A program made the position numbers and the translations under genes. 64,000 nucleotides of DNA, taken from the NCBI RefSeq assembly GCF_963676685.1, contig NC_092346.1, positions 3,286,001 to 3,350,000 on the forward strand, written 5' to 3'. The notes beneath the pieces were generated by a model. It saw only the letters and a list, made by a program, of their open reading frames with translations, did no database searches and was not told the origin of the DNA. Positions 8,420 to 30,505 of this stretch are shown here, piece after piece; the stretch's first letter is position 1, and each line of letters starts with the position of its first letter. The stretch is from Mytilus edulis. Its lineage: Eukaryota.

Positions 8420-11406
8420 TTACACTTGCTCCATTTCCTTTTTAATGTTCACGGGAAAAATGATGGGTGTCGTTTCACATTTAGCAGATGTCTGCATACT
8501 GTCGAAAATATAAAAGGAATAAGGTTTTGAATCATGAAAAGTATCTAAAATTGTAAAGTCAGTAGTCACCTTCTTTCTAAATTATTAACATCTATTTTAT
8601 CAGCAATCAAAGGCGGGCTTCATAGTTATTGTGAAACTGCCTATTCTAAAGATGGCGTGAATAAGATGTGGATATTTAAATATTCCAAAGATCTTTTAGA
8701 GTACATACTATCTAACTCTCTTTCATCTTGTAACAGTGTTAAAACATTTGACGTTTCTACTCTTTACACAAGTATACCACATTCCAAACTAATAGACAAA
8801 GGGAAAGAGTTGGTATTGTTTTGCGTCATAAAAAAGAATGGCCAACGTAGATATAAGTATCTTGTCTTAGGGAGGGATAAATCCTACTTTGTAAAGGATC
8901 ACTCTGATTCAAACAAAAAATTATCTGAAACTGATATTATAAAGATGCTTGAGTTCTTGATGACAACATATTTGTTATGTTCGGAGGACGTGTTTTTCAA
9001 CACCCTGTCGGCATTCCAATGGAAACAGACTGTTCCCCTCTACTTTCCGAATTGTTTCTTTATTATTATGAGGCTGACCTCATGCAGGAACTTCTAAGGA
9101 AGAAAGATGAGAAGTTAGCAATATCCTTTAACTCTACTTTCCGCTATATAGATGATGTTCTTTCACTAAATAATTCAAAATTTGGTGACTATATGGAAGG
9201 CATCTATCCCATCGAACTAGAGATAAATAATACTACAAATACATTTAGTCGGCCTCATATCTTGACTTACATCTTGAAATTGACAATGAGGGTCGGTTTA
9301 AAACAAAACTTTTCGACAAAAGAAATGATTTCAGTTTTTCAATTATGAACTTTCCATTTCTAAGTAGCAACATTCCAGCAGCACCTGCATACAGGGTAGA
9401 TATATCCCTATTGATACGATTTTCCCGTGCTTGCGTAAACTATCATGATTTTCTTGATTGAGGATTACTGCTCACAGAGAAGCTTTTAAACCAAGAGTTC
9501 CAAATATTGAAGTTGAAATCATCCCTTCGTAAATTTTACGGACGCCATCACGAGTTGGTTGACCGTTATGGAATAACCGTTTCACAAATGATATCAGATA
9601 TGTTCCTTACTTCGTAACTACAATCCCCTTCCCTTTCATGAATGTGATCTACCGAATCAGACTATTTACCGGATTTGTTATCACATAAGCAACACGACGG
9701 GTGTCACAAGTGGAGCAGGATCTGCTTTCCCTTCCGTAGGACCTGAGATCACTCCTAGTTTTTGGTGGAGTTCCTGTTGTTAGTCTTTAGTTTTCTATGT
9801 TGTGTCATGTGTACTATTGTTTGTCTGTTTGTCTTTTTCATTTTTAGCTATGACGTTGTCAGTTTATTTTAGATTTATGAGTTTGACTGTCCCTTTGGTA
9901 GTTTTGGTCACTCTTTTCTAGCTGAACATACGACGAATCAGATGCATCCCAAATGATATTCCTGTAACACACAAGACAAACACTTCAGTGCTCCGTGTAG
10001 CAAAGAGGATCTTTGTAACCCGACAAAGGTTTATTTTAAACACATGTTATTGTTCAAAATGACAAATGAATCGGACACCAGTTTTAACAGTAAGCATCGT
10101 CTTCTCTTATCTGGTTAGTTCTTTGTATTTTAAGTATATTCATCATGTAATCAGCTACAAAGTTAATGATGTCCTCAGGGAATCATCCACCAGCATCAAA
10201 ATTCTTTGAAGTAGACAGTAAAAAGTTAAACAACAAAAATACTACACTCCGAGGAAAATTCAAACCAGAAAGTTCGTAATCAACTAGAAAAATAAAAAGC
10301 TCAAACACATCAAACTAATGGATTAATTGTCATATTCCTGACTTTTTACAGTCATTTTCATGTGTAGAACAAGATGGATTGAAACTGAGTTCAAAGGTCA
10401 CTATATATATATAGCTAAACTTTCCACTCATATAAGAGTCGCATACAATTATATTTACAATGATATGTGAACAAAACAAACGGATATAATTGAAAGACAA
10501 TAACAATCAAAACCAAGGAGTAAACAAAGACTCACAAACCAAAGGAAATTTACATCAACAGTTATAAATGATAATTAAGAAACAACGCAAACTCCACTAA
10601 AAACCAGGAGTGAAATCAGGTGCTCCGGAAAATGTAAAAAATAGCGGAACAGCTGTCAACATTCTGTTCTAATCGTATTCATCATTAACACCAACAATAT
10701 GTAAAATAAAATCATAATAACTGTTTTTCCTTTCGCTAAAGGCGCAGCCTGGAGTGAAATGAAGTTTAAAGGTTGACAATTTTGGATATTCATCGCTTCT
10801 GATAGGCAACAATTGTTTTTTTTTATACCTAACTAGCTGATGGGCCTTTTGGATCATTCAAACAGAGCTTACTTTATTTTTTGACGTTCGAAAATACCTT
10901 TATGACCTGGAATTACTCGTTTGAATAAAAAAGGTGGAATCTTTTTGTAAAATGTTGATGGCCCTGAAAAGGACCGTTGATAAGAGATATAACCGGCTTC
11001 TGATGCATGTACAAAGCCTTGTTTACTCGTCTCTCGAGTGGCTACCGGTAAATCACAATCTGAAACGTGACCGTTATGATGTCATGGGAGATAACGGTCA
11101 CGTTACACGTTAAGAAACTCAAAAGGTTATTCGCCGGTGAATAATAAGGTTATACACTGCTGATGTAAATTGTTAGGGTCATTCGTCCTACCTTGCAACG
11201 GAATGAAAATTAACTGAATTATTCCTTGTCACGTGATAACATGTTACCCAATAAATTTTGTGTGTAAGATATGTAAAGTATAATAATATTAATTATACTG
11301 TTTTTATTAGTATTTGAATTTGATTGATATGCTTGCAATTATCCCTTTGGTTAAGGAAATACCTTGTAGGAATTAGATCCGTTGTATTATTAGAAAAATA
11401 CAACAT
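8420..11406 (-). CDS. Candidate distal C-tail exons of the aGPCR (11363-11406, 9932-9961, 8420-8498)
   Basis: Three short segments with AG acceptors (GT donors on the first two) whose phases chain 0>2>2>stop, ending ...KKEMEQV*. No homology support. Confidence 0.3.
8560..9917 (+). mobile_element. 5'-truncated Penelope-like retroelement (Naiad-type; RT at C-terminus) with 3' tail
   Basis: TFDVSTLYTSIPH, FQHPVGIPM, FRYIDDVLSLNN, FPFLSSNIPAAPAY and KFYGRHHELVDRY across frameshifts (ORFs 8657 and 8977); no endonuclease follows the RT. Confidence 0.9.
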
Positions 11407-11715
11407 CTTAAAGTGCGCAAAATAAACATCAAATCTGGCACATTCCAAGTACAAATATAAGTAATTTGGTACACAGCAAAAATTGCATACCCGTTTTTCA
11501 TGCGTAAAACAGGCGTTTTACGTATGTTATTAAACGTACGTAAAACGCATATTGAGGACCACGCATGTAAAACGCCCGTTTGAAACGTATGAATTACGTA
11601 TGTTAAACGCACGTAATACGTGTGTGAACGTTAAACGTGCGTTAAAATTGTACGTATAACGCCCGTTTTACGTGTAAACGCACGTTAAACGCCTGTTAAT
11701 TTCTAACAAATCATG

Positions 11716-12035
11716 CGTTTTACGTATGTTTTTTTATGTCCTCAACACCCGTTTTACGTATGTTTTTTTATGTCCTCAACACCCGTTTTACATATGTTTT
11801 TTTGTCCTCCAACACCTGTTTTACGTATGTTTTTTCTTTCTCTGCAACAACTATTTATACATGTTTTTGTAGTCTTCAAAACCTGTTTTACATGGGGTTT
11901 TTTTCCACAGCACCCATAATATGTATGTTCTTGGTTTTTTTTTGCATCTACACCAGTTTAATGAAAGTTTTTTTTTGTATGGGGTAACGCATCATCTGTT
12001 TAACATTTTTTGTTGTCCACAACATCCAAAAAATT
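11716..12035 (+). repeat. ~34-bp subterminal tandem repeat (GTTTTACGTATGTTTTTTTATGTCCTCAACACCC), about 9 units, decaying inward
   Basis: Units read directly; explains ORFs 11713 and 11736. Confidence 0.85.
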
Positions 12036-12596
12036 TCCAAACACATTATATATATGATTTTTCTGAGTTTTTTTTCTGGTTGGTATAAATGGATAAACCA
12101 TAGATATTTGTCTTTTCTTACGTAAACACTAACATGACTAACAATTTGATTCTTTTACATATCTTCATGTATGTATATATAAAATCAATGAGTATATCCT
12201 TGTAGTATTTAGTTGGAAATCAAAATGACAACATTTAAATATGATAGTGTTGTCTGTCCTTTTCAACCTTTGCCTCCCTTCCATAACTGTTTTTGGCAAG
12301 GCATACATTTACTGTGCGCTATCTTACAATTAGAATTGAAGCACAATATTTTATGACAGCCTATACAAATGATCTACATCCATGAAAAAACCCTCATAAG
12401 AAAGATTATCAATTACCATTTAGAATGGACTATTTGCATTAAACATGTTAAAGATGTCTTTTGGTCTTTATGCTGGTTTAATTGATGTATACGCAATATC
12501 TCCTTTTTTATATTGAAAAGAATTGGTTATACTCAAGCCAATGTGAAGAAGAAAAGGTACATGTATTAAGGATTAGACATCATCTTTTTCTGTTGG

Positions 12597-13967
12597 CAGG
12601 GTTTGACACTAACATTAGAGGTGATGTAGTCCAAAGGACTACCAAGAAAAAAATTTGGGTAGTCCTGTTAGTCCACCTCTATCACCGGTGAGGGCCGCAA
12701 CGCGGCCCGAACTAGCTAGGGGGTTTGGGGGCATGCCCCCCCAAGAAAATTTTTCGAAATAAGATGCAATTTCCTGCCATCTGAGCACCTCAAAAGCACA
12801 CAAATGTTCATTTGAGTTTTGAAAATATTTTGGTTTTTTTTTCAGATAAATTAAAGTTGACATTCAGTGAATAAATTTTATTACTCCTGAACTTTTACCG
12901 TCAGAAAATTTTGAAAAATGAAATGCAAAATCTGCAATCTGAGACAATTTCTAAGGCCTTGTTAGGTGGAGTTATTTGACCTTTTATTCCAGGATTATTT
13001 AGAAAAAAAGGATAAAAATAAGTCAAAGTTTTCATTAATTCTTCAAACAGTTTATAAGATTTTTCTTGTAGTGATACAATGTCTTTGTTTGTGGACTAGA
13101 GGTCAACTTCATCATCACTGTTGAAAGCAATTCAGTGGATATGTTGCTAAAACAAAATGCCTTTAATACCATTTTGAATGACATGCATATATGGGTTTTT
13201 TTTAATAAGAAAGCCACCAAAAAATATTGTTGGTTTTTTTTTTCAAACTACCTCTTCCTGTTTCTTTTTTTGGGGGTAATAATTTTTTTATCCAAATTTG
13301 GGAAGTATTTTTTTTTTAACTCTGACACCTTCTTCTTCTTTCCTCTATAACTTCCTCCAATAGTTGGAGTACACCAACCTTACTAAATTAAGGTTGGTTA
13401 AACCCTTATAATAATTAATTATTCAGTGAAAACATAACTATTTAAAAATAACATTAAAAAAAATATATACAGTTAAATCCCTGCAAAAATAATAATAATA
13501 ACTTCTATGTACATTAAAAATGTGTCACAATTTAAAGGTTATTAATAGAGTTTTAAGAAAGTTTTGAATATTATTTACAGGGCATACATTATAGTAAAAC
13601 AGCACCTACGTTTTTATTGCTGACCTTTGCTGTCTATTCTGCAGTTCCTTCACATTTTGGTTATCAGACATTTTCATTTTACATTGAAAATCCCATGTGT
13701 TACAAACACTGTGAAGATTCTGATCAGAAATCTGGATCTCAAAAGTGCTTTCATAATAACAATATAAAATTTACGTTCTTCCAAATGCCATCACTGTCTT
13801 TGAAAATGTAAACATAATTGGGAGGACTTTTATGCCAATTTTTAGCATTGAAATAGCCAGACCATATACAAATTTCCGGGTGGTCCACAGGACTACTGAT
13901 TAACCATGTTTTGGTAGTCCTCCTAGATTTTAGGGGGGCACCGGACTACCGTTAGTGTCGAACCCTG
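12597..13967. mobile_element. hAT-like non-autonomous DNA transposon
   Basis: TIR CAGGGTTTGACACTAAC / GTTAGTGTCGAACCCTG (16/17), subterminal GGACTAC/GTAGTCC motifs, flanks GTTGG/CTTGG. Confidence 0.85.
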
Positions 13968-14845
13968 CTTGGTCAATGGAATTTTTTTTCACTACAATTG
14001 TGATTTGAATTGATTGTTGGTTGGTTGGTTCTGATAGAATTTGCAAAAAGACCTCAAAATATGATGGTCATATAAACACTACAAATTTGGTTATTTCAAT
14101 TCTATTTATTTAACAACTGCATTTATTTTGGGACCCGATATTCACAATCATACAAAATGAGTGTACCATAGTTCTTATTTCATTAGCATTATGTGGTATT
14201 TAAATGTACTTGTGGTTGACATATATACACTCCAAGTTTACTCTGCCTTGCTCTTGGTCTCACAAAACTGTTTAACTAGTACTGTTAGTATTATTTAAAC
14301 TGTTCTCCTGTTTACAATATTGTAATTTTTGCTCATGAATTCCTTCATTTACTTGAACTTCTCCTTGTAAGATTCCAAGGTCATGATGATATAATCCTGT
14401 TGTTCATAATCAACAATCCATCCTTCGAAAGATTTCTTCAGCAGCTGAAATGTAAAAACAAAAGAAAATGTAGTTTGGTGGACCGTGGGAAATCATTTTT
14501 TTTAATGGAATAGCAAAGTATACTTAAACATAATTTTTATTCAAATCCCAGCATGAATATATGTAGATGTTTGTCAGGAATGGAGATATGTCCTTTTTAT
14601 AAACACAAGTCTGCTTTACTTATCTCAAAACTAAAAAGTCTGATATACATGTATCAGTGAATTACTGTAACGCAATACACCAAATTAGCCTATTGCTAAT
14701 ATCATATCTGAGTAACTGACCATTGGTCATTCTTAAAGGCTGTACAGTCTCTTGTGGTGAGTTGTCTCAGTGGCAATCGTACCACATATAATCTAATTTT
14801 TATACAAGTTAGAAAACTGTACATTGACTTATCAGTATGTATCAT

Positions 14846-15558
14846 AACTAGAGACTGTGTCGTTCACCTTTGTCTATGTGCATATCATAAATGAAGGACA
14901 CAGATGGATTCATGACAAAATTGTGTTTTGGTGATGGTGATGTGTGTGTAGATCTACCTATACTGAACATTCTTGCTGCTTACAATTATATCTATCTATA
15001 AATTAATGAACTTGGCTCAGTAGTTAAAAAAATATTGTGAAAATTTAAAAAAAATGACTATGAAGGGCAATAACTCCTTAAGGGGTCAATTGACCATTTT
15101 ATTCCTTAACTATGTGTAGGTCTTACTCTACTGTACATTATTGCTGTTTACAGCTTATCTCGATCTATAATAATATTCACGATAATAACCAAAATCTGCA
15201 AAATTTCTTAAAATTACCAATTCAGGGGCAGCAACCCAACAACCGGTTGTTCTACTCATCTGAACATTTCAGGGCAGGTAGATCTTGAATTATGCTCTAA
15301 ATGCTTTGGTTTCAGAGATATAAGTCAAAATCTACATTTTACCCCTATGTTCTATTTTTTAGCCATGGTGGCCATCTTGGTTGGTTGGCTGGGTCACCAG
15401 ACACATTTTTGAAACTAGATACCCCAATTATGAGTGTGGCCAAGTTTGCTTTAATTTTGCCCAGTAGTTTCAGAGGTTAAGATTTTTGTAAAAGTTATCA
15501 ACGACGGATGCAAAGTGATGAGAAAAGCTCACTTGGCCAAGGCCAGGTGAGCTAAAAA
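14846..15558 (+). mobile_element. HINE-like family A, one core repeat
   Basis: Colinear with 3046-4339 and has the same 3' hairpin; a 5' fragment also occurs at 16072-16130. Confidence 0.85.
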
Positions 15559-16437
15559 TGAGGTTTAGGTCAAATGAACACTGCAGACACCACCTACACT
15601 ATGCAATCATTCCTAGCTACATATATAGTTGATAGATTGATTATAGTATCTGGGAAAAAGACATTACCATGAAAACTAACACTAACCAATGAACAAAGAA
15701 TGAGGTCAAGGTCAGATGACACAGGTACACCTTACAATATTCCATACAATACATATATTTGACCCAATTGTATATAGTACAAATGTAGTAGTATCTGAAA
15801 AATAGACCATGCCTAAAAAAATTAACATTGTCCTATGAACCATGATAAAGGATGAGGGGCAGATAAAACCTAACAGACAGACATATTCATCCTACAAACA
15901 TAGTATAAACCATATATTATATACAGATGATCTATTGCTAATGCAGTATTTGAGAAACCAACCAAACCACACATAAAATTAATATTGACAAATTAAATGA
16001 ACCATAAATATGAGACATGATAGCAGCCAGCACGAAGACAATAGATAAGGAAAAACTGTACAGTTGATAAAAACTAGAGAACCTGTGTCTCGCTCACCTT
16101 GGTATATGTACTTATCAAACAAAGGACACTCTACAAAGTTAACGGCTGAAGACAGACCAAGATTCAGATTAATACTGCCGGACAGATATGCAAATCATCT
16201 GACACACCAAATATATTTTAATTTATGGAAGTTCCCTACTCAGTTTCAAAATATCAAGCTTTTTTTAATAGTAGTACATAGAATGCATATCGATAGGTGA
16301 TTAATAAAGGAACTAAAAAACAAAAAAAAATATATAGGCCAATGTGCTTGTTTTCCAGATATTAGCCATTTAAATTTTGGCAGGAAAATGTTCTCTCTTT
16401 GATTTTTTATAGCTTTATCAATGTCAATTTAAGTTCT

Positions 16438-18264
16438 AAACCAGATGCTCCGCATATTTTTTTTTTCACATCCCCCCCTTTCCCTTTTTCCAAAACTGAT
16501 CTCAATTCAAATTTCTAATGGAGTTTGCAACAATAACTACTCATTTAAATACATCATAAAATATTAAAATGTAACAAAAGGTGCTTGTTATCACTGAACA
16601 ATGCTGAATGGTAAAAATTATTTTAATTTATCAGTTGGTAGTAAAAGTGAATATACATTGTATATTGTATAAAACAATGATTTAAGAAGTTGATTCAACT
16701 ACTATTCTGGACAAAGAAAGATAATAATCAATAATCAATTGAAAATTTCTATATTTCTTGCTATTGCGCAATACTGTGCAATTGAAAATATTTGCTATTG
16801 CACAATACTATGCAATTGAAAATTTCTTGCTATTGCGCAATACTGTGCAATTGAAAATTTCTTGCTATTGCACAATACTGTGCAATTAAAGATTTCTTGC
16901 TATTGCTGAATACTGTGTAATTGAAAATTTCTTGCTATTGCACAATACTTAATGTAATAATTTTGGATCCTGATTTGAACCAACTTGAAAACTGGGCCCA
17001 TAATCAAAAAATCTAAGTACATGTTTAGATTCAGCATATAAAAAAAGCCCAAGAATTCAATTTTTGTTAAAATCAAACTTAGTTTAATTTTGGACCCTTT
17101 GGACTTTAATGTAGACCAATTTGAAAACGGGACTAAGCATTAAAAATCTACATACACAGTTAGATTTGGCATATCAAAGAACCCCAATTATTCAATTTCT
17201 TATGAAATCAAACAAAGTTTAATTTTTGACCCCGATTTGGAACAACTTGAAAACTGGGTCAATAATCAAAAATCTTAGTACATTTTTAGATTCAGCATAT
17301 CAAAAAACCCCAGGGATTCAATTTTTGTTAAATCAAACTTAGTTTAATTTTGGACCCTTTGGACCTTAATGTAGACCAATTTCAAAAAGGGACCAAAAAT
17401 TAAGAATCTACATACACAGTTAGATTCGACAACATCAAAGAACCCCAATTGTTCAATTTTTGATGAAATCAAACAAGTTTAATTTTGGACCCCGATTTGG
17501 ACCAACTTGAAAACTGGGCCAATAATAAAAAATCTAAGTACATTTTTAGATTCAGCATATCAAAGAACCCCAAGAATTCAATTTTTGTTAAATCAAACTA
17601 AGTTTAATTTTGGACCCTTTGGACCTTAATGTAGACCAATTTGAAAACGGGACCTAAAATTAAGAATCTACATACACAGTTAGATTCGGCATATCAAAGA
17701 ACCCCAATTGTTCAATTTTTGATGAAATCAAACAAAGTTCAATTTTGGACCCTTTGGGCCCTTATTCCTAAACTGTTGGGACCCAACCTTCCTTAAGTGG
17801 TCATAAACCTTGTGTTTAAATTTCATAGATTTCTATTTACTTATACTAAAGTTATCATGGTGCGAAAACCAAGAATAATGCTTACTTGGGCCCCTTTTTG
17901 GCCGCTAATTTCTAAACTGTTCAGACCTCAACTCCCAAAATCAATCCTAACCTTCCTTTTGTGGTCATAAACCTTGTGTCAAAATTTCATAGATTTTTAT
18001 TTACTTAAACTAAAGTTATAGTGCGAAAACCAAGAACATGCTTATTTTGGCCCTTTTTGGCCCCTAATTCCTAAAATGTTGGGACCAAAACTCCCAAAAT
18101 CAATCCCAACCTTCCTTTTGTGGTCATAAACCTTGTGTTAAAATTTCATAGATTTCTATTCACTTTTACTAAAGTTAGAGTGCGAAAACTAAAAGTATTC
18201 GGACGACATCAACATCATACCATATACGACCAAATTTTTTTAAATTTTTGCGGTCGTATAAAAA
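16438..18264 (+). mobile_element. HINE-like family B with three internal arrays (35-bp x~6, ~260-bp x3, ~160-bp x3), nested in a TTAA-flanked MITE (16301-18460)
   Basis: 3' hairpin TATACGACC...GGTCGTATA; array periods read directly; inserted in an A-run. Confidence 0.75.
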
Positions 18265-19294
18265 CTATTAAAAAAATAACAAAGATTTTATAAGACTTTT
18301 CCAGACATGACAGATGGCATATAGTTTTACATCTAAAAGATTTATAGAAAGAAAAATGGGGGTCAATTGGGGGAATTTTTTAAAGACGATAAATGAATAA
18401 AACCTGAGGATTCTGATAATCTGACAAAAATCACAAAACATGACAAGCAAACATCATTAAAGTAATATATATATAGTAAATGATAAATTTTGTAGACATG
18501 TTTGGAAATTGTCTTTGAATAACTCAATGTATCCTATATATATACAATGTATGCATCATTTATATTTACCTAAAACATAATTTTCTTTTCTTTTAAAAGC
18601 TTGTTAGATCTATACTATAGTATATACAGGATCTGATCATACACCAAAGAACATATTTGATAAACCTAAGAAAGAAAAAATAATAATAGTTTTATATAAA
18701 TTAGTATATAAAAAAAGTTTAGATTTTTTTACCCTCCCTTAAATAGATGATTATGAAGTTTATGTTTAACCATGTTAACTGTTACAGTCTTTAAATAGTA
18801 TATACATGTATATGTGTGGCTATGGCGCGGAATCAGGGTCAACAATACTTATTTACGTGATTGTGAATCTGCTATTAAACATGTTGCCTCTTGTTTTAGG
18901 TGATTTACTGTTGTTCAGTCTTTTATAATTAGTTTTCTAAATAGTGGTGTGTGGACTTATGGTTGGTTTTTTTGTTTTGTAAGACATAAGTTTCACTTCC
19001 ACTTGTAAGTTTTGAATGTCTCTTTTAATTTTGCTGTATCATCATGACCATTCTTTTTAAGATTAACAACTCATGGAAGGAGTTGGCAAGACAATTTTTG
19101 TGCTGTTAAGCTATAGTATTGGTTGACTTTGCGATCAATTTTGAAGTTAAACAAGTTTTTCAGTATATAGTTTAACGACCAACTATCGCTAGTTTTCCCC
19201 AAATTGCTGATATGATGCATGATTTTAAGGTAATTTTCATTCCAGCTATTTGACCTTATGACCTATTTGTTGATCTTGTCTTTTTGAACATAAA

Positions 19295-19445
19295 CATCGG
19301 GGCGTTTTATAGATGACTATGGGGTATAGGCTTTGCTCATTGTTGAAGGCTGTACGTTGACCTATAGTGGTTTATGTCTGTGTCATTTTGGTCTCTTGTG
19401 GACAGTTGTCTCATTGGCAATCATACCACATCTTCTTTTTTATAT
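19295..19445 (+). repeat. Dispersed repeat ending ...CATTGGCAATCATACCACATCTT
   Basis: Related copies at 483-618, 35920-36149, 14720-14800, 48678-48710, 56905-56970 and 20338-20570 (-). Confidence 0.8.
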
Positions 19446-20571
19446 TGTTGACGTGCAAACACAAGGCCATGGCAAGTATAGGCTGACCAATTATTTATCT
19501 TGTTTGTTTACCCCTTCTTCTGATGCAGGCAAAATGACACATTTTTCAATCACCAAGTGGAAATGTCATTATGAGAATTAACAATGTACATGTACATGTA
19601 CATCATACATGACAAATTGATAGCTACAGCTTATAATTGTTTGCTACAAAACAGTATCTAATACTTACCCATTTATATTCAGTTGTTGGAATAGTGATTG
19701 GCACTGAAAAATTAAAAAAATATACTTAATTTTCATGCATACATGTACAAATAATTTGCATAATCTGCAAATATTTTTACAAAATTTACTTGACCATCAG
19801 GTGGATAGTTGCCAATGTCATGTGTGTGTGACATTGGCATTCATATTGCATGCTGCATCTGCTAATTTTGAAATTAGCATGGTATCTTTTTTTAGATTTA
19901 TATCAATTTGACAGTTCTAAAAAAGGTTTAAACTTCAAAATGTTATTGCTTTTGGCATTGGAATTTTGTAAACATACATGTATACAGATGCAGGATTCAT
20001 TTTGTGATTATAAGCATAAGTTTTAAACATTTGTATGAGACATACTTAAGATAGAAAACAGAAACTAGATTCAGCCATTTTTTCTAATAATGGGGCATAT
20101 CTCTTTGACTCCACGAAATTTCAACCTCAATCTGTGCTTTGTGGTAATAAGCATTGTGTACAATGTATATATGTAGTAGCACTTTCATAATATTTAGTCG
20201 AGACAAACTTATGTTGGATTACGAAACAATAAAACGAGACTGCATATGATCAATCAGGTATCCAATATCCATAGTCCAAGTAGTTACATAGCATATACTA
20301 GTATATATATATATAAATAAGATGTGGTATGTAATCTTTAGATATAGGAAGATGTGGTATGAATGCCAATGAGAAAACTCTCCATCCAATTTACAATTTA
20401 TGAAAAATAAAGTAAACCATTATAGGTAAAGGTACATCCTTCAACATGTAGCCTTGGCTCACACCAAACAGCAAGCTATAAAGGGCCCCAAAAATTACTA
20501 GTGTTAAACCATGCAAACAGGGAAACCAATGGTTTAATCTATATAAAAACGAGAATTGAGAAACATATATG

Positions 20572-21133
20572 AATTAAGAACCTTAGTGAGCGGGCCCACA
20601 TACCCTACATGTACGTCCCCACATTGTCATTGGAGAAATTAAATAAGAAAAGAAAATAGAATGAGAAAAAAAAATTGAATCATAATTTCCTGTCAATATG
20701 CACATCTACATTATGAGTATGTCCTTATTATCTAAAAAGTTTCATGAAATTCTGTTGTATGGTTTCAGAGAAGTTGCGATGATGAACTGTTGCAGTAGTA
20801 TATTACAGCAAACTAGTTCAAAGGGGCGTAACTCCTGGAAAAAAAATTAAATTGTAATTTCATGTCGGTATGCCCATCTACGTTGTATGTCCTTATTATC
20901 TACAAAGTTTAGTGAAATTCAGTTGTGTGGTTTCAGAGGAGTTGCGATGACAAACTGTTGCAGTAGTACATTAAAGCAAAAAAGTTCAAAGGGGCGCAAC
21001 TTCTTGAAAAAAAAATGAATCGTAATTTCCTGTTGATATGCACATCTACATATAATGTCCTTATTATCTAAAAAGGTTTTGTCAAATTATGACGGGTCAA
21101 AAACATTATATACGCAATATTGCGTGGGGTATA
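20572..21133 (+). mobile_element. HINE-like family C with ~170-bp core x3, nested in a dispersed repeat (20338-20570)
   Basis: GCACATCTAC...GTCCTTATTATCTA repeated at ~20700, ~20872 and ~21040; 3' hairpin ACGCAATATTGCGT. Confidence 0.7.
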
Positions 21134-21533
21134 ACTACATAAACAGAGGACAACCACTGCAGGGCAGATCCAGCCATTTTAAAAGGGGGGGGGGGGGGTT
21201 CCAAATATATGTCTCATTTCAATTGCATTAATCGACCAAAAAAAGGAGGGTTCCAACCCCAAGAACCCTCCCCTTGGATCCACTACTGCATGCGCTGACA
21301 CATCAGATTCTATTCATATATGGTACCGTACATGTACATTGTATTATCAAAATATCATGACAATATTCATGATTTTATGTATTATGTAAATCTTTTATAA
21401 TTTTAGTGTCTATTAACTATGTCTAGTGCTACAACTCCGTCAACTATGTCATTGTACATTGTAACTAATTCATACATTTTATCTTGAATAAAGTCAAAGA
21501 CAATTAATCTTGGGGGTGGGGAGTGGGGAAGCA

Positions 21534-21659
21534 CAGAGGCGGATTTAGGGGGGGCCCAGGCCCCCCTTTTTGGGAAAAAATTTTGTTGCTTATATAGGGA
21601 ATCACTGAAGCGTGACTGGAGCGGGCCCCCACTTATGAAAATTTCTGGATCCGCCACTG
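21534..21659. mobile_element. CAG.GGCGGAT-type MITE with 5-bp TSD AAGCA
   Basis: CAGAGGCGGAT...ATCCGCCACTG; relatives at 21160-21288 and 27667-27803. Confidence 0.8.
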
Positions 21660-22465
21660 AAGCAGTCTTCACGCTGAGTGGCAGCCCAGGCTAGTAAAAT
21701 TGCTCTCACTCGGGCCTGTTAAAATCATATCTACACTACGGGCCAACAGAATCTAACTAAAAAATTTCAAATATTGAGCTCCTGGCCTGTAGATTACTGG
21801 GGAAAGGCTAATTTAATTAGTATGGGAAGCTACTTAATGCTGATGGGGTTCTGTTACCCAACCCTTTATTTTCCTATATTAATTTAAATAAATAAAACCT
21901 TTTTTTTTTTATATAGTCATTATCTTTGAAGTAAAATGGTTGCTAGATCCCTACTATTTTTCATATAATATCTGATTCAGTTTATAAAACCTTTATGCCA
22001 TTTAAATATATTTGTTTCGTTTTTAAAAACAGTAGGGCGAACGAACACATGGCAAAATTGTCATGCAATAAGCCAAGGACGAACGGACTTGACATCGTTG
22101 TCAACGGTCTTGCTATGAATGTTTGTTTGTTTGTATATGGCAACGCTGATTAGCAACGTTTCAACATTGCATTCAACATACTTAATATATGTAGTGTGTT
22201 TGTTTAAGCGATCTGAGTGATCTACCCATTTATTAATTATTTACCAAAATAAGTTATCTGAATCTGCCTCTTGTTTCGTTGACTGTTTGACAAGTCGTCC
22301 CCATTTTTGAAGCTGTAAAGTGACCTTCTTCTCGGAAAATAATCCGCCTCTGCTTGGTTTGCATATCTTATTCCATTTGTTTTAATTCAAATGTCCGTCT
22401 CTCCAAGTCAATATTTCTCATAAACAATCGCACCCAGCGTCCTTGTCGTCTGCGTCATAACATCT

Positions 22466-23872
22466 AAACAAGAGGCTCTCAAGAGCCTGAATCGCTCACC
22501 TGAATTTTTTTGGTTTAATCTCTCATCAATGATTATTTTGGCTTTTCAATTTATTTAAATGTTCTTTGAATCGTCCTATTTTCTTCAAAAGCAAAAAAAA
22601 ATCATTTTCTCCTATGTTCTATTTTAGCCATAGGAGCTATGTTTCTTGACATACAAGGAAATGAAATATAAAATTTATACTAGATACTCTGAAACTCTGA
22701 AACTCATCTAGCCTAAGTTTGGCTGAAATTGATACAGCAGTTTCATAAGAGAAGATTTTTTAAAGTAAGTCAACATGATGAACAAATTGTGAAAAAAGTC
22801 TTTAAAGGGCAATAACTCCTAAAGAGGTCAATTGACAATTTTGGTCAAATTGACTTATTTGTAGATCTTACTTTGCTGATCATATTTGCTGTTTACAGTT
22901 TATCTTTATCTATAATAATATTCAAGATAATGACCAAAAACTGCAAAATTTCCTTAAAATTACCAATTAAGTGGCAGCAACCCAACAATTGGATGTTTGA
23001 TTCATCTGAAAATTTCAGGGCTGATAGATATTGACCTAATGAACATTTTTACTCCATGTCAGATTTGCTCTTAATGCTTTCGTTTTTGAGATATAAGCCA
23101 AAAACTGCATTTGACCCCTATGTTCTATTTTAAGTAACGGCGGCCATGTTTTTTGACGGATCAAAAATCAAAGCACACACTTTGTGCAGGATAATCTAAG
23201 GAACAACCATGCTAAGTTTTAACCAAATCCATTCAGTAGTTTCAGAGGAGAAGAATTTTTAAAGTTAGCAAATATGATGAACAAATTGTGAAAAATTGTC
23301 ATTAAAGGACAATAACCCCTTAAGGGGTCAATTGACAATTTTGGTCATATTAACTTATTTGTAGATCTTACTTTGCTGATCTTTTTTGCTGTTTACAGTT
23401 TATCTTTATCTATAATAATATTCAAGATAATGACCAAAAACTGCAAAATTTCCTTAAAATTACCAATTAAGTGGCAGCAACCCAACAATGGTTTGTTTGA
23501 TTCATCTGAAAATTTCAGGGCTGATAGATCTTGACCTAATGAACATTTTTACCCCTTGTCAGATTTGCTCTAAATGCTTTCGTTTTTGAGATATAAGCCA
23601 AAAACTGCATTTGACCCCTATGTTCTATTTTAAGTAACGGCGGCCATGTTTTTTGACGGATCAAAAATCGAAGCGCACATTTTGTGCAGGATATACTAAG
23701 GAACAATCATGTTAAGTTTCATTCAAATCCATTCAGTAGTTTCAGAGGAGAAGATGTTTGAAAAATTGTTAACGACGACAGACGACGACGACGACGACGA
23801 CGACGTCGACGACGACGGACGCCAAGTGATGAGAAAAGCTCACATGGCCTTTTAGGCCAGGTGAGCTAAAAA
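22466..23872 (+). mobile_element. HINE-like family A subfamily, two-plus ~500-bp core repeats, (GAC)n
   Basis: Same termini and core as 3046-4339; core period from 22807 to 23308. Confidence 0.85.
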
Positions 23873-24367
23873 AGGAAAACCGAATCCGGACTAAATATCC
23901 CGATTACGTTACTGGTTCCCGCTGACGCATTTTCAATGTTGAGTATATTATTAGTTCTGTCGTTATTAATGATCATTAATACTGCCTTTTCAAAATAAGA
24001 ATGACTGGCCTCGGAAATTTGCAAACTGATAAAAAAATATATCGTTGAGAATAACGGCATGACACGGGTTAGGTTCTTCTCATATATATGTTATGATGGT
24101 ATGATACTAAATCACCGGACACAATTACGAACGATTTTTGAACTGTAATTAATATTTTTTATTTAGACTACTTTTCTTGAATTGAACGGGACACCGGGAT
24201 CGGGTGTTTTTAAGCTCGTGATTTCGGGATTGACCCTTTCGGGATCCGGGAATCGTTTTTTTCGGATTTCGGGACATCGGGATTTATTTTATTTAAATTC
24301 GGGACCTCGGGAATTCGTTTTTTAAGTCCGGGATTTCAGGATCAGGACCCCTCCTATCCCCCCTCTC

Positions 24368-24773
24368 ATCGACATCAGACTCGGACTTCTCTTAAAATTG
24401 AACTGAATAAATACAATTTCTTGGTATTGTTATGCGTTTACTTTTCTACATTGGCTAGAGGTATCGAGGGGGAGCTAGGGTTGATATCTCATAAACATGT
24501 TTAACCCCGCCGCATTTTTGCGCCTGTCCCAAGTCAGGAACCTCTGGCCTTTGTTAGTCTTGTATTATTTTAATTTTAGTTTCTTCGTGTACATTTGGAG
24601 TTTAGTATGGCGTTCATTATCACTGCACTATTATATATTTGTTTAGGGGCCAGCTGTAGGTGCGGGAATTTCTCGCCCTACATTGAAGACCTGTTGGTGA
24701 CCTTCTGCTGTTGTTTTTTTCTATGGTCGGGTTGTTGTCTCGTTGACACATTCCCCATTTCCATTCTCAATTG
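24368..24773 (+). repeat. Dispersed repeat ending ...TTGACACATTCCCCATTTCCATTCTCAATT
   Basis: Related copies or ends at 48915-49747, 8349-8415, 50804-50858, 56826-56885 and 63780-63843. Confidence 0.8.
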
Positions 24774-25290
24774 TATTTATAAAATTGCACCTGTCTTGAC
24801 ACCTTCGACTTCGTTTATCTGAAAAACTAATAAAGGGGGGGGGGGGAGGTTTCACTTTAAATTAATATGTAAAGTGCTAAAATTATGGTTCATGATGTAT
24901 TCATTCGTAAGTTAACCTTACAATTAGATCCCAAATAAACTCCAGAAATTAGCTGCATATTTATGAATTTTTAGTGAGGGTGGGGGTTGGAGGGATCATC
25001 ATCCTGAAATCCCAGGCTTAAAAACATGAAATACTGATGAGGTCCCGAATTTAAAGAAATTCAAAACCCCGACATCCCGAAATAAAAAAAAAAAAGATTC
25101 CCGGACCCCGAAAGGATCAATCACAGGGGTTTAACTGATAAATCGACTGGTTTGCACGAAATTTCCATGTTCAAAGTCAGTTGATTGGGTTGTGCAGATT
25201 AATTAAAAATACTTATGTCTCTGGCATACAGGTCATTCTTTCTTAAATATTTGTATACATGTAGCTATATGTACTGAAAGTCAGTGCATG

Positions 25291-26561
25291 TTATTGTCGA
25301 GCCTGCAACTTTTGTTGCAGAAAGCTCGACATAGGGATAGTGATCCGGCGGCGGCGGCTACGGCGGCGGCGGCGGCGGCGGTGTTAGCTAACTTCTTAAA
25401 AGCTTTATATTTTAGAAGGTGGAAGACCTGGATGCTTCATACTTTGTATATAGATGCCTCATGTTACGAAGTTTCCGTCAGTCACATGTCCAATGTCCTT
25501 GACCTCATTTTCATGGTTCAGTGACCACTTGAAAAAAAAGTTCAAATTTTTTGTAATGTTGAATTCTCTCTTATTATAAGTAATACTAGTAGGATAACTA
25601 TATTTGATATGTGCGTACCTTGCAAGGTCCTCATGTCTGTCAGACAGTTTTCACTTGACCTCGACCTCATTTCATGGATCAGTGAACAAGGTTAAGTTTT
25701 GGTGGTCAAGTCCATATCTCAGATACTATAAGTATAAGCAATAGGGCTAGTATATTCAGTGTATGGAAGGACTGTAAGGTGTACATCTCCAACTGGTAGG
25801 TGTCATCTGACCTTGACCTCATTTTCATGGTTCAGTGGTTATAGTTAAATTTTTGCGTTTTGGTCTGTTTTTCTCATACTATATGCAATAGGTCTACTAT
25901 ATTTGTTGTATGGAACGATTGCAGGGTGTACATGTCTATCGGGCAGATGTCATGTGACTTTGACCTCATTTTCATGGTTCAGTGGTCAAAGTTAAATTTT
26001 TGTGTTTTGGTCTGTTTTTCTCATACTATATGCAATAGGTCTACTATATTTGTTGTATTGAACAATTGTAAGGTCTACATGTCTAACGGGCAGATGTCAT
26101 GTGACCTTGACCTCATTTTCATGGTTCAGTGGTCAAAGTTAAGTTTTTGAGTTTTGGTCTTTTTATCTAATACTATATGCCATAGGTCAACTGTATTTGG
26201 TGTATGGAAATATTTTATGATCTTTATGTTACTCGCACAGGTTTTATTTGACCGTGACCTCATTTTCACGGTTCATTGCACAGTGTTAAGGTTTTGTGTT
26301 TTGGTCTATTTTTCTTAAACTATAAGTAATCGGTCAACTATATATGTTGTATAGAAGCATTGTTAGCTGTACATGTCTGCCTGGCATGGTTCATCTGACA
26401 TTGACCTCATTTTCAAGGTTCATTGGTCTATGTTTAGTTATCTTGGTTAATGTTAAGTTTATGTGACAATTGTTATAAAGCTTAGCTTTATACTTAGGAC
26501 TATCAACATAATATCAATGATTAGTATAGAAGGCGAGACATTTCAGCGTGTGCACTCTTGT
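25291..26561 (-). mobile_element. HINE-like family D with (GGC)n and ~150-bp core x7
   Basis: Hairpin TGTCGAGC..CTGCAAC/GTTGCAG..GCTCGACA; GACCTCATTTTCA repeated about every 150 bp. Explains ORFs 25288 and 25860. Confidence 0.8.
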
Positions 26562-29500
26562 ATTAAAATGGGTATATTTTTAGGCAAAAATGTTGTCACA
26601 CCCTTCTGTGTTTTTTTTTGCACTGCTCAAGATGCATTCTTATTGACTTTATATAGTTTTGAATTCACATATACATGCACCAAGATACATAAATTTCAAC
26701 AAGCCCTCACGATCCCAGATTCTGAAATGAAGACTCATGCTTAGCAAAACAATATGATTGGCGTTCGTTATAGTTTTTTCATCCGATGTTATGATTTTAA
26801 CAATCAATATGCTCTTAATGTTCAATTACCATGATACTTGTCAAAAGCATCATGATACCTATGGAGCTACCATTTGATATTTAGGGGGGGGGGGGGGGTA
26901 GTGAAGACGAAAAATTTCTTTCTTTCAAAATTTCCATATTGTCAAATTACAAGATCAAGAAGCATATATCTAGAATAAGGGAGGATTAAAGTTGAAAATA
27001 AGGGGTACAGGAACAAGCAAGCATGTGTAGCAGCAACAACAAAAATTATCAATCCTGAAAAAAAAATCCTCCTTTTCTACAGTGGCGTTTTAAATGGCCC
27101 GGCGTATACACACATCTCCTGATGAAAATAAAAATAATAATCTTATAAGCTTGAATAAAAAGAGTGGTGTATGCTCCCAAATGTCACTCACCATTTGGGG
27201 TACATGGGGCTCATAACAACGACCCCCTAAAACCAAAATGATTATAAAGTTGAGATTTATTTTGCTATTCGACTGTCAAAGCCATAGCCTTATATTAAGA
27301 CCAAAATTTCTGGCTACATGGAGACATCTAAGTCTACTATCAATATTAACAGGATATTTTGTATGACAGGAACAGAAGCGGTGACATTGTAGAAGAACAA
27401 AGTATTAACGGTATTTATGTTAAAAATGGTTTTTATTTTCAAATCAAAGGGGGCATATATATGACCTCTATGTCACCGTATTAAGAACTATTTAAAATAT
27501 CACCCTCATTCGTTTTTAATTGAGACAAAATGAATAAAGATAAAAATAAAGAATAGCAATCAGTGTCTATATATATATGTTTAAATTACTGGATGGTCAT
27601 GAAAGTGAACTGGACTGAAAGGCAAAACAATGTGACCTCCAGTCCTCTTATTTTTGACTGATTAAGCAGAGGCGGATCCATGTAACCAATTTTTTTCAGG
27701 CCCAGTCATGGATAAAAGGGGGTGGGTTCTAACCATATGTCCAATTCAAATTCATTGATCATCAAAAAGGTGATTCCAACCCCCTTCCCCCTGGATCCGC
27801 CCGGGCACTATTTAATTGCAAATACTTTGATAATTTCTGTACATTTATTTATTTATTTATTTATTGCATAGCTTTTATATAGCGCCTATCTAATAAACAT
27901 AATACTCTAAGCGCTTAACATATAAAATTGAAGGAACATATATATCACAATGCATTTGCCAACTGTCTTCACTCTTTTTATGAAAGTGAGACAATTGCCA
28001 TACTAAAAGTTTCATTAGAAATATGAATAAAAGGAAATACAAAGTATCATAATGTGGTTAATACGTAAATGAGACCGAAGCTCCCTTCCCCCCACAATAA
28101 TAAAAGAAATTACTGCAAATATTCTGGGACTATAGTCCCAGAAATTTTAGACCTTTCAGAAGACCAGCCAACGTAAACAATGAATCATCCCCCCCCCCCC
28201 CATCCCCGGTAAATATATTTACTAACTGTGATTATAAACAGAATAAATCAACATATGACCATGGAAATATCACACCCAAGTGTCCTTCTGATCCCTGCTG
28301 GTATTTCTATTCTCATTTTACTGTAAAATGAGAATAGATTTGAAAAACCAAAGGCGGATTAGGGGGAAGTGCTTACTGAACAACAAAGATATATTCTCAA
28401 ACGTATTTTATTGAATAAGACCTTTAGCGTAGACTTCAAAATTTCATAATAACTTATGAATATCTGATTCATTTATTCACACAGCCCGGTCACACAGTCA
28501 GTCAGGTTTTAACAGCATCTGTGATTTATTATAAATAGATATCTTTTTCAAATATGGTTTCAATGGTAATTAATTTGGCGATAATTTGTGAATGTCCCTT
28601 AATTTTTGGTTACTTATTCCTTTTCGAATTATTTTTTACAGTCAAAGAAAATATTGTGTTCGTCTAATACCTTTCTCTGCATGTAAAAATGTATAGGTAG
28701 AGGCTATGTTTCGCTCCCCTGTACCAATTTATCCCTTTGAAAGAAAACAGAATTCAAGTTGGGATGCTCTCTATCATGCTTCCTACATAAAACAGTGAAC
28801 ATTATTTTGTTCTGATTAGTGAGTGTATAAATATATTGTTGAAATGGTAATTAAGCCAGTTGCTTAATCATAAGGTCAGGATTGAGTAAGGCTAAGACAC
28901 TGTAAGAGGGTGAAAACTGTTGTAGTACCTGACTTATCAGAGACATGTATTTTTTAAAAGATACATATAATGTATTATACTGCTATGTGTTGTGTGTTAC
29001 AGTCTGTTGAAGTCATGATAGTACATATATTTTTAGTGTTTTGGCCATTCTTTCTTCATTGCAATATTCTAATTGCTCAATACTTTAAAATGGAGGGGGG
29101 GGGGGGGGGGTGGGGGGGTGAACAAGGGAAATAAATCAAATTTATCTAAATATGAGTATACTTTGTAATCAGTTATAGAAACTATTATTTTAAATTAACT
29201 CCCATTGCCTCAGCAGTTACATCTAACCTTAAGTGGAAATGATTCCTTTCAAACAAAAAGATATGGTAAGATGATATTTTCATACTTGTACAAAAAAAAA
29301 TAATGTATGAAACCATTGTTTATTACATCTGCTTGCATAATAATATTGAAGTTGAAACTAACAACGATCACGTGTATCCTGTCAACCCCTGAAAAACATA
29401 ATATTGTCTTCTTGACTACTTCCGCAAACCGTGATTTGATAAAATGATATATTGTTATAGTGTATGTTAATCAAAGACATACATTGTAAATACATGAATG

Positions 29501-30421
29501 TTTCACCTTTTCACATTGATTTTTTTTTATTCATTTAAAAATAAGGAGATGTGGTATGATTGCCAATAAGATTACTTCTGAGTTCAACAGAAAATTTGCA
29601 CATGCATTTTTGAAATTCTAGATTCACATGCATGACTACATTTAATGTGTAAATTTTAAGTTTAATAATACCAGAGACATGTATACATACAATATAGCTT
29701 ATTAAAGGAGGAAAATGTGCTTTATCATTTTATCAGCTTAAAGAGGCTTAGCATGAACAGATAATTTTAACCATTATGCAAATATTCATGTTTTCATATT
29801 TATATGCTGTAACAGTTCTAATTTTTTTGTCAGCTTGTACACTATTTATAAATATACTCTCTAGAAAATAAAAAGCGATGGAAAATAAATTGTGAAAAAC
29901 ATGTTCAATTTGATGTAAAATTCTCTTGAAGTTATAAAATGAGTTTTTTAATATGAGAAAAAAAAGGCTGCGTAACACAAAAATATATAATGAAAACGCA
30001 CGTAAAGCACACGTAAAACATATGTTTTACGTATATATATATGTTTTACGTGCGTTTTTAAAACATACGTTTTACGTACGTGATGTATTACGCCCGTTTC
30101 AAAACGGGCGTAAAACACCCGTTTTGGTACAGGCGTTTAACGCATGTTGGCTAAAACATGCGTTTTCCATACGTAAAACGTACGTTTTACAGACGTTTTT
30201 TTAAAACGTACGTAAAACATGCGTTGCACTTTTTGCTGTGTACAAAAGAAAACTTATAACTTGATTTGCTTCAGACATGTGTATTAAGAATACTTTAACT
30301 GGCATCTAATTTCATGTCACTGTCCAGTTTAAAAAAATATACTTGATAATTATTTATTGTCGGTATGACACCGTTTCTTATCAACCTTTGTTAAATTTTA
30401 TATCTATAAAATAATTCTTAC

Positions 30422-30505
30422 ATATTTAGTTGACTCGGTAGATAGTTTCAAATCCATACGACCAGCATGTCGTCGTCTCTGATAATGCCTGTAGCCAAGC
30501 CTTAC
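30422..30505 (-). CDS. aGPCR exon, helix 8/C-tail (VRLGYRHYQRRRHAGRMDLKLSTESTKY)
   Basis: 84 nt, phase 0; acceptor ttacgcag, followed by a gtaaga donor. Without splicing it reads through to a TAG five codons later. Confidence 0.85.

Follow-up and report, generated by a model that had tools for sequence, protein, structure and literature searches.

Introduction

Zebrafish EnSpm-N49 and EnSpm-N49B are non-autonomous DNA transposons of the CMC-EnSpm type (PMC13189230). Here, we describe an element of Mytilus edulis that resembles them. It spans positions 11472-30240 (18,769 bases) of the window, which is the whole 64,000-nucleotide stretch that was analyzed (contig NC_092346.1, positions 3,286,001 to 3,350,000; G000:C3:3286001-3350000). 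Like the zebrafish elements as that source describes them, it has a terminal repeat of 15-16 bp that starts with CAC and includes a run of A, has 2-bp flanks, carries no transposase and is mobile. However, EnSpm-N49/N49B are 2.5 kb long, are flanked by a CA duplication and have a reported autonomous match, whereas the mussel element has a 15-kb core and flanks that are almost always TA, yielded no autonomous match and gives rise to a spliced RNA. We consider it probable that the window copy is a young member of a multi-copy, 15-kb family bounded by terminal inverted repeats (TIRs), with no protein gene that we could find, which likely moves by cut-and-paste through a borrowed transposase, probably of the CMCT group (CACTA/EnSpm-like).

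Other described systems share some of these features. The ESTA lineage of the CMCT group is also EnSpm-like, with TA duplications, a CAC start and, in one entry, a length of about 12 kb, but it is described from rust fungi and carries a TET/JBP gene as well as one for a transposase (PMC12730594). One supplementary file of that paper contained no match to the mussel end motif. Giant Plavaka (EnSpm) elements of red algae, at 17-19 kb, belong to the same size class but are described as encoding a transposase and accessory proteins (10.1101/2025.02.11.637652). Animal elements with non-transposon DNA are reported to occur mostly as single copies of a few hundred bases (PMC8277862). Like the mussel element, these Pack-TIRs hold non-transposon-like DNA between inverted repeats and are often transcribed; in contrast to their median capture of 224 bp, four multicopy cases in reference genomes and a donor known by definition (PMC8277862), the mussel element has approximately 10 kb of family-specific sequence, at least 12 copies and no established donor. 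For a curated bivalve library, no more than two CMC families are reported, with an average of approximately 5.5 kb for the longest superfamilies (PMC10294476). The literature that we searched held no description of the mussel element or of three sister families, which together we call the clan; Repbase and subscription journals lay outside this search, so that an existing library entry is possible.

The element moves as a single unit

The window copy is bounded by the termini CACAGCAAAAA(T/G)TGCA at 11472 and 30240. Its 16-bp TIRs, at 11472-11487 on the plus strand and 30225-30240 on the minus strand, are identical at 15 of 16 letters, and a TA dinucleotide lies directly outside each of them (11470-11471 and 30241-30242). 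Inside the left TIR, a subterminal array at 11488-11890 contains CGTTTTACG-type motifs in both orientations and merges into a 34-bp tandem repeat; the right subterminal array occupies 30000-30224. When up to one mismatch was allowed, the window contained 35 CGTTTTACG matches, and 22 of these fell, in both orientations, within two islands (13 at 11503-11825 and 9 at 30012-30219), between which there were none. In 100 shuffled windows the mean was 10.6 matches per whole window, and 35 was never reached. The left end and the start of its array (11472-11720) also had a CpG observed/expected ratio of 2.8. Thus, the CAC..GTG-type ends, TA flanks and dense subterminal islands that the initial annotation had claimed are all present at this copy.

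Matches to the ends were sought across the 1.37-Gb genome, which yielded at least 27 left and at least 52 right ends. Among 19 other loci that we fetched, 11 carried both ends, 9.5-32 kb apart, with interiors colinear with that of the window; the others were partial or rearranged, or may have an end beyond the fetched stretch. Family A, as we call this group, therefore comprises at least 12 paired copies including the window, on six contigs, with a common core of 14,918 alignment columns. In family-specific intron sequence, the nine other young full copies were 0.8-2.0% divergent from the window copy, and the young copies formed a star-like tree. Older copies differed by 2.5-6.6%, and one decayed copy by 12% in its aligned parts. 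Even in decayed copies of 65-85% identity, the order of segments was unchanged. Comparison of the flanks among the 12 copies found no likeness. Non-autonomous and multicopy, with unrelated flanks, the family in these respects resembles Pack-TYPE elements.

These results show that the element is one unit that moves as a whole, as the initial annotation had proposed for the window copy. Gathering other elements with the same TIRs, as it had suggested, returned 11 paired copies with the same interior, and this recurrence of ends and interior together rules out that each end belongs to a separate short element. Segmental duplication is ruled out as well, since homology stops at the ends and the flanks are unrelated.

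Two rearranged members of the family were also observed. Within 2.4 kb at G000:C10:35004404-35006763 (L096), a 117-bp left end in inverted orientation is accompanied by two pieces of the interior and a right end of 93 bp; this copy may be a product of aberrant transposition. A second copy is split into two parts (G000:C5:8141856 and C5:8164800-8174000; L086, L256, L257): its interior ends near the equivalent of window position 29974, its right end lies 22 kb further on, and no left end was found within 50 kb.

Target sites and the loss of a receptor exon

Family A lands almost always at TA, which was found outside 29/35 ends (14 of the 17 left ends and 15 of the 18 right ends). By copy, TA was present on both sides in eight of the 12 pairs and TT on both sides in one, while two had mismatched flanks and one was eroded. 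The flanks therefore matched over 2 bp in 9/12 copies, and not over the 3 bp of classic CACTA elements. Empty sites were sought for 18 copies, of which three were informative. For a family-B copy inserted within a repeat, comparison with 46 copies of that repeat gave a true overlap of 2 bp. The second informative copy, C12a of family A, is considered in the Discussion. For the window, the comparison revealed a gap of 834 bp in one paralogue.

The neighboring gene encodes an adhesion G-protein-coupled receptor with 98% matches to Mytilus proteins, and the claimed position of the element at the 3' end of this gene was confirmed. The paralogous locus (L263) is 84% identical to the left flank and 86% identical to the right flank, with 834 bp between the two matches and TA at each break. 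These 834 bp contain the receptor's last coding exon, which was sought in the window and was absent (best score 38, versus 60 in the paralogue). In this allele, the exon at 30422-30505 (minus strand) is now the final coding exon that remains, and read-through from it into the intron replaces a 20-residue tail with one of five residues. Among public mussel proteins, the near-identical P0002 and P0003, in which the end of the penultimate exon is like that of the window, retain the 20-residue tail, and P0041, which matches the window, terminates in the five intron-read residues. The window allele is thus truncated, and intact receptor alleles exist, which would lack the element.

The last exon was likely lost as the element moved, and a transposase-made adjacent deletion would account for the missing 834 bp. 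Apart from the paralogue, the genome contained no full copy of the 834-bp segment, in which only a 150-bp repeat recurs elsewhere; the segment was therefore not seen to have been captured. With regard to the initial annotation, the TA on each side stands, but, judging from the paralogue, the two TAs probably represent two sites with host DNA missing between them. The predicted empty site did not appear, as the only homologous unoccupied site seen has the 834 extra bases including the receptor exon. Presence/absence variation is supported only indirectly, by the intact-tail protein models versus the truncated model that matches the window, but not by the empty site that had been expected.

A spliced, apparently non-coding RNA is made from the interior

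The splice signals noted earlier in the interior proved to be real. RNA reads and contigs from four studies, mapped at strict settings, revealed three joints, at 14444-18570, 18665-19669 and 19703-22245, whose CT..AC ends mark them as minus-strand introns of the GT-AG type. One raw RNA run supported these joints with 32, 52 and 29 reads, contigs of the three other studies supported them as well, and one 594-nt contig reached from exon 1 to exon 4. All four exons lie on the minus strand: exon 1 at 22245-22434, with its 5' end at or beyond 22434; exon 2 at 19669-19703 (35 nt); exon 3 at 18570-18665 (96 nt); and exon 4, the last, at 14118-14444, with a 3' end at approximately 14118-14241 depending on the contig. 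The RNA of about 650 nt (GC content 0.33) starts in a central CpG-rich region at 22000-24130, which the position of exon 1 marks as the putative promoter. The presence of this region, also claimed previously, is evident from CpG observed/expected ratios of 1.21 at 22000-22470 and 1.62 at 23868-24130, versus 0.24 and 0.41 for interior stretches elsewhere.

The window copy is unique at three positions, and there the reads showed the family letters; at site 14322, which splits the copies, they carried both letters. Two or more variants are thus expressed, and expression of the window's own copy was not seen. In a separate mapping, two stranded RNA runs had approximately 1-fold depth in the exon-4 bin, so that expression is uneven. 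In a search of sequencing runs, none of the holders listed was recorded as RNA.

The RNA is apparently non-coding. Its longest ATG-initiated frame was 36-55 codons across seven copies. No Pfam match was found for any of 101 frames, i.e., the 100 window frames of at least 48 codons and the exon-4 frame, in agreement with the reported lack of a visible transposase, and Rfam gave no match. A small protein made from exons 2 and 4 was ruled out, since the RNA joints insert exon 3, which brings stops into all three frames. In five older copies the exons diverged by 4.8, 6.2, 5.1 and 3.7%, versus 4.4% in introns; exons diverge like introns, with no exon constraint.

Interior layout of the window copy

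Twelve repeat-covered blocks, each recurring in unrelated loci, account for 7,541 of the 18,769 bases, and several contain more than one element, which bears out the claim of at least ten nested elements. Repeats shared with other copies include remnants at 14850-15989 common to the family, those in the stretch of introns 1-2 at 19296-21795 (19296-19449, 20327-20576, 20597-21088 and 21534-21795), and an inverted-repeat element at 24187-25122 with another repeat within it. A tandem-repeat element with 35-, 260- and 159-bp units (16454-18260) is present in most young copies and absent from that place in the older copies C10a, C13b and C12c, suggesting that the active line gained passengers and was still copied. 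The right arm (26570-29960) is mostly family-specific sequence in which RNA depth was almost nil.

Individual copies have one to seven private segments of at least 100 bp, and the window copy has four. These are a 1.37-kb insertion with inverted-repeat ends, which is another transposon (12597-13964); a 1.39-kb insertion of 500-bp tandem units (22476-23865); a 1.26-kb insertion of 147-bp tandem units (25295-26549); and a 138-bp segment in the right arm (29295-29432). The second of these splits the CpG-rich region, which is unbroken in other copies. Copies C13a and C5b have independent reverse-transcriptase-coding insertions in exon 1 (equivalent to window 22284-22344), and together with the window's own insertion just upstream they raise the possibility that the CpG-rich region may attract insertions. 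Outside the element, to its left, window positions 8549-9461 hold broken frames that, judged from their sequence, resemble the reverse transcriptase of a retroelement.

Sister families share the ends

Three sister families, 13-18 kb in size, have TA flanks and the end motif of family A around unrelated interiors. Family B comprises at least 13 pairs, spanning 8-40 kb, among the first 100 of 124 pattern matches, with TA on both sides in 6/6 fetched copies and at 17/17 ends. Family C includes pairs of 0.2-18 kb. In family D, 22 left ends were identical to one another, and the two full copies that were read measured 13.0 and approximately 16.5 kb. Families C and D were found with patterns that required TA, which biases their TA counts. 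A core, AAA-x-TGC(A/C), lies inside the end in all four families. The interiors of families A-D share only common repeats, and a six-frame comparison of A with B found likeness only in the ends and shared repeats. No transposase was seen in the interiors of B, C and D, and 98 frames from one copy of each gave three Pfam matches, all below the cut-off.

Some end arrangements differed from this pattern. One family-B copy (G000:C7:85739440-85758334) has its right end in the left-end form, so that both ends start alike, and C7:87632609-87672909 is a second pair with both ends in that form. In addition, an end-like motif occurs in tandem at a spacing of approximately 1.0-1.2 kb at G000:C6:46173809-46178758 and C1:13130111-13132109.

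Search for an autonomous partner and class assignment

The genome contained 53 Transposase_21 matches, none of them inside a paired family-A copy. Flanks were fetched for 20 of the 53 loci; among these, three families had both ends defined (32-35, 20.8 and 23.4 kb), and a fourth was defined at one end. These local elements of 21-35 kb are of the same size class as the mussel element and have CMCT-type ends, but they encode a transposase. Three end-pattern searches were also made, the first two of which took in the first 100 of 124 and the first 100 of 152 matches. Another two, less common types of end were read over their first 10 kb and showed no transposase. The autonomous Transposase_21 partner that the initial annotation had anticipated was therefore sought and not found among the 20/53 loci with flanks examined.

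Two of the Transposase_21 families can be described further. One, at G000:C14:68010982-68046070 (L203, L164, L165, L204) and C5:35057297-35089215, is an autonomous-looking CACTA family of 32-35 kb whose copies are approximately 98% identical. Its long terminal repeat starts with CACTAGTAG, its duplications are 3 bp long, and its Transposase_21 frame has 600 codons. The other is a 20.8-kb CACTA element at G000:C10:58257086-58277885 (L210, L211, L168, L169, L212), which is centered in a longer inverted repeat whose flanking arms match out to at least 27 kb apart.

CMCT elements are described as having CA..TG ends with 2-5-bp duplications (PMC12730594). Family A has the short TIRs with CA(C)..(G)TG ends and the subterminal arrays of direct and inverted repeats that characterize CMC/CMCT elements, and Transposase_21 was found neither in the element nor in a partner with matching ends. 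Thus, the proposed CACTA/EnSpm membership is favored by the ends and subterminal arrays but not by the partner search or by the resolved Transposase_21 elements, which have other ends and 3-bp duplications. The element behaves like a non-autonomous CACTA/EnSpm transposon; membership is not established, since the defining transposase was not found.

Discussion

The reading that we favor, a family mobilized by a borrowed, probably CMCT-group transposase, suggests the following course of events. A partner would supply the transposase in trans for cut-and-paste movement, and a helper protein would bind the subterminal arrays and pair both ends across 15-30 kb; recognition of subterminal arrays has been described for CACTA elements (PMC8978399). 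The CMCT identity of the enzyme would follow from the ends, as these are described for related elements (PMC12730594; PMC13189230). The interior would have grown as a passenger, through other repeats that inserted into the active line and were then copied along with it, and the RNA would be a passenger transcript from the internal CpG-rich promoter. At the window site, a TA in the receptor's last intron would have been the point of entry, and the host DNA from there to a second TA, 834 bp that include the last coding exon, would have been lost by a transposase-made adjacent deletion.

Several observations weigh against this reading. The class, probably that of an unusually large non-autonomous CMC-type DNA transposon, has its enzyme read from end structure alone. 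The Transposase_21 search, the 20/53 flanks and the end-pattern searches did not find an autonomous partner, and the Transposase_21 elements with defined ends have CACT ends and 3-bp duplications. One of the eight family ends in the clan, from family D, starts CTAG, whereas the other seven start CAC. The empty-site test was informative for only 3/18 copies, and for C12a, compared with four copies of its site, the overlap was 4 bp and not 2. The evidence for the deletion at the receptor comes from a paralogue of 84-86% identity and from protein models, rather than from the DNA of an orthologous allele without the element. Finally, the strong TA preference also fits Tc1/mariner, and two borderline results hint that the RNA may be more than a passenger: a 75-codon stop-free frame across exons 1-3 (reached in 40/1000 shuffles, P ~0.04) and splice letters intact at 160/160 aligned positions (approximately three changes expected, P ~0.05).

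These observations bear on alternative explanations. Mobilization by a transposase of the Tc1/mariner type, or by another that is TA-specific, seems unlikely, although TA lies at 29/35 family-A and 17/17 family-B ends, one family-D end begins CTAG, and TA duplication is described as typical of the Tc1/mariner superfamily (10.1101/656579). Elements of that superfamily are typically 1-3 kb long with inverted repeats of at least 20 bp (10.1101/656579), whereas here a 15-kb core ends in 16-bp repeats and arrays of short subterminal motifs, as in CACTA (PMC8978399), and one copy has TT on both sides among other exceptions to TA. No frame for the approximately 350-residue DDE/D transposase of Tc1/mariner was present in the element; no genome-wide search was aimed at a mariner partner with these ends. 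The intron-bearing Tc1-like TLEWI elements were ruled out, since they are described as lacking terminal repeats and encoding a transposase (10.1101/656579). We also think it improbable that the RNA is the decayed accessory or transposase gene of an autonomous ancestor that suffered internal deletion. The large size of the genome's Transposase_21 elements (21-35 kb) would fit such an ancestor, as would the one frame that stays in register across all four exons with few stops and includes the 75-codon open stretch, but the lack of a Pfam match, the low GC content of the RNA and the absence of protein-level likeness between A and B outside the ends and repeats argue otherwise. The exon-4 frame likewise had no homologue among 5.8 and 1.8 billion proteins, which is weak evidence given queries of 47 and 31 residues.

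A functional role of the RNA within the element, such as guiding or protecting transposition, with maintenance by selection in the active line, appears very unlikely. Clean splicing in four studies, transcription of at least two variants and the intact splice letters speak for such a role. However, exons diverge as fast as introns, several copies have exon insertions or lack exon 1, the splice-letter result was ascertained on young copies, and the transcripts examined were those of family A. A broader version, in which the clan consists of giant (13-19 kb) protein-less transposons with an unclassified TA-specific transposase, a promoter and spliced non-coding RNA of each family as a working part, and adjacent-deletion insertions that drive gene presence/absence variation, is in our view quite unlikely. 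Pack-type capture is a tentative possibility of greater weight: the interior would be an old host locus, i.e., a promoter with a spliced non-coding or decayed gene, and each sister family would have taken up another locus. The interior is indeed host-like, with introns, nested repeats and a CpG-rich 5' end, and four families share ends around unrelated interiors. However, three interior probes gave no donor for exon 4 or the right arm, and the only candidate donor locus was an isolated 68% match of approximately 480 bp to the CpG-rich promoter region and exon 1 (C11:55715360-55715811; L244). The 40 kb fetched there contained no end motif and no other family-specific match above 170 bp, exons 2-4 had no match above shuffles nearby, and exon 4 was seen only at or beside element ends (14 protein-level and 17 DNA matches). 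It is possible that the C11 match is a donor promoter or an old relic of the element itself. A further isolated match to an interior probe (70%, 230 bp) lies at C11:7.19 Mb. Capture is an account of origin and is compatible with movement by a borrowed CMCT-group transposase, the reading that we prefer.

The mussel element is thus a well-supported, unusual variant whose cargo looks like a passenger, and whose host donor is not established beyond the 68% match. In comparison with the small, mostly single-copy animal elements described above, what has recently been copied here at least 12 times is a 15-kb stretch that includes a putative promoter and a spliced transcript, and the interiors of three sister families that match it in size are unrelated. 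The sharp question that this leaves is which transposase reads the ends of the clan. Hemizygous, dispensable DNA is a known feature of mussel genomes. The clan provides a concrete, genotypable unit of 10-30 kb, with one worked case of gene damage, the loss of the receptor's last exon.

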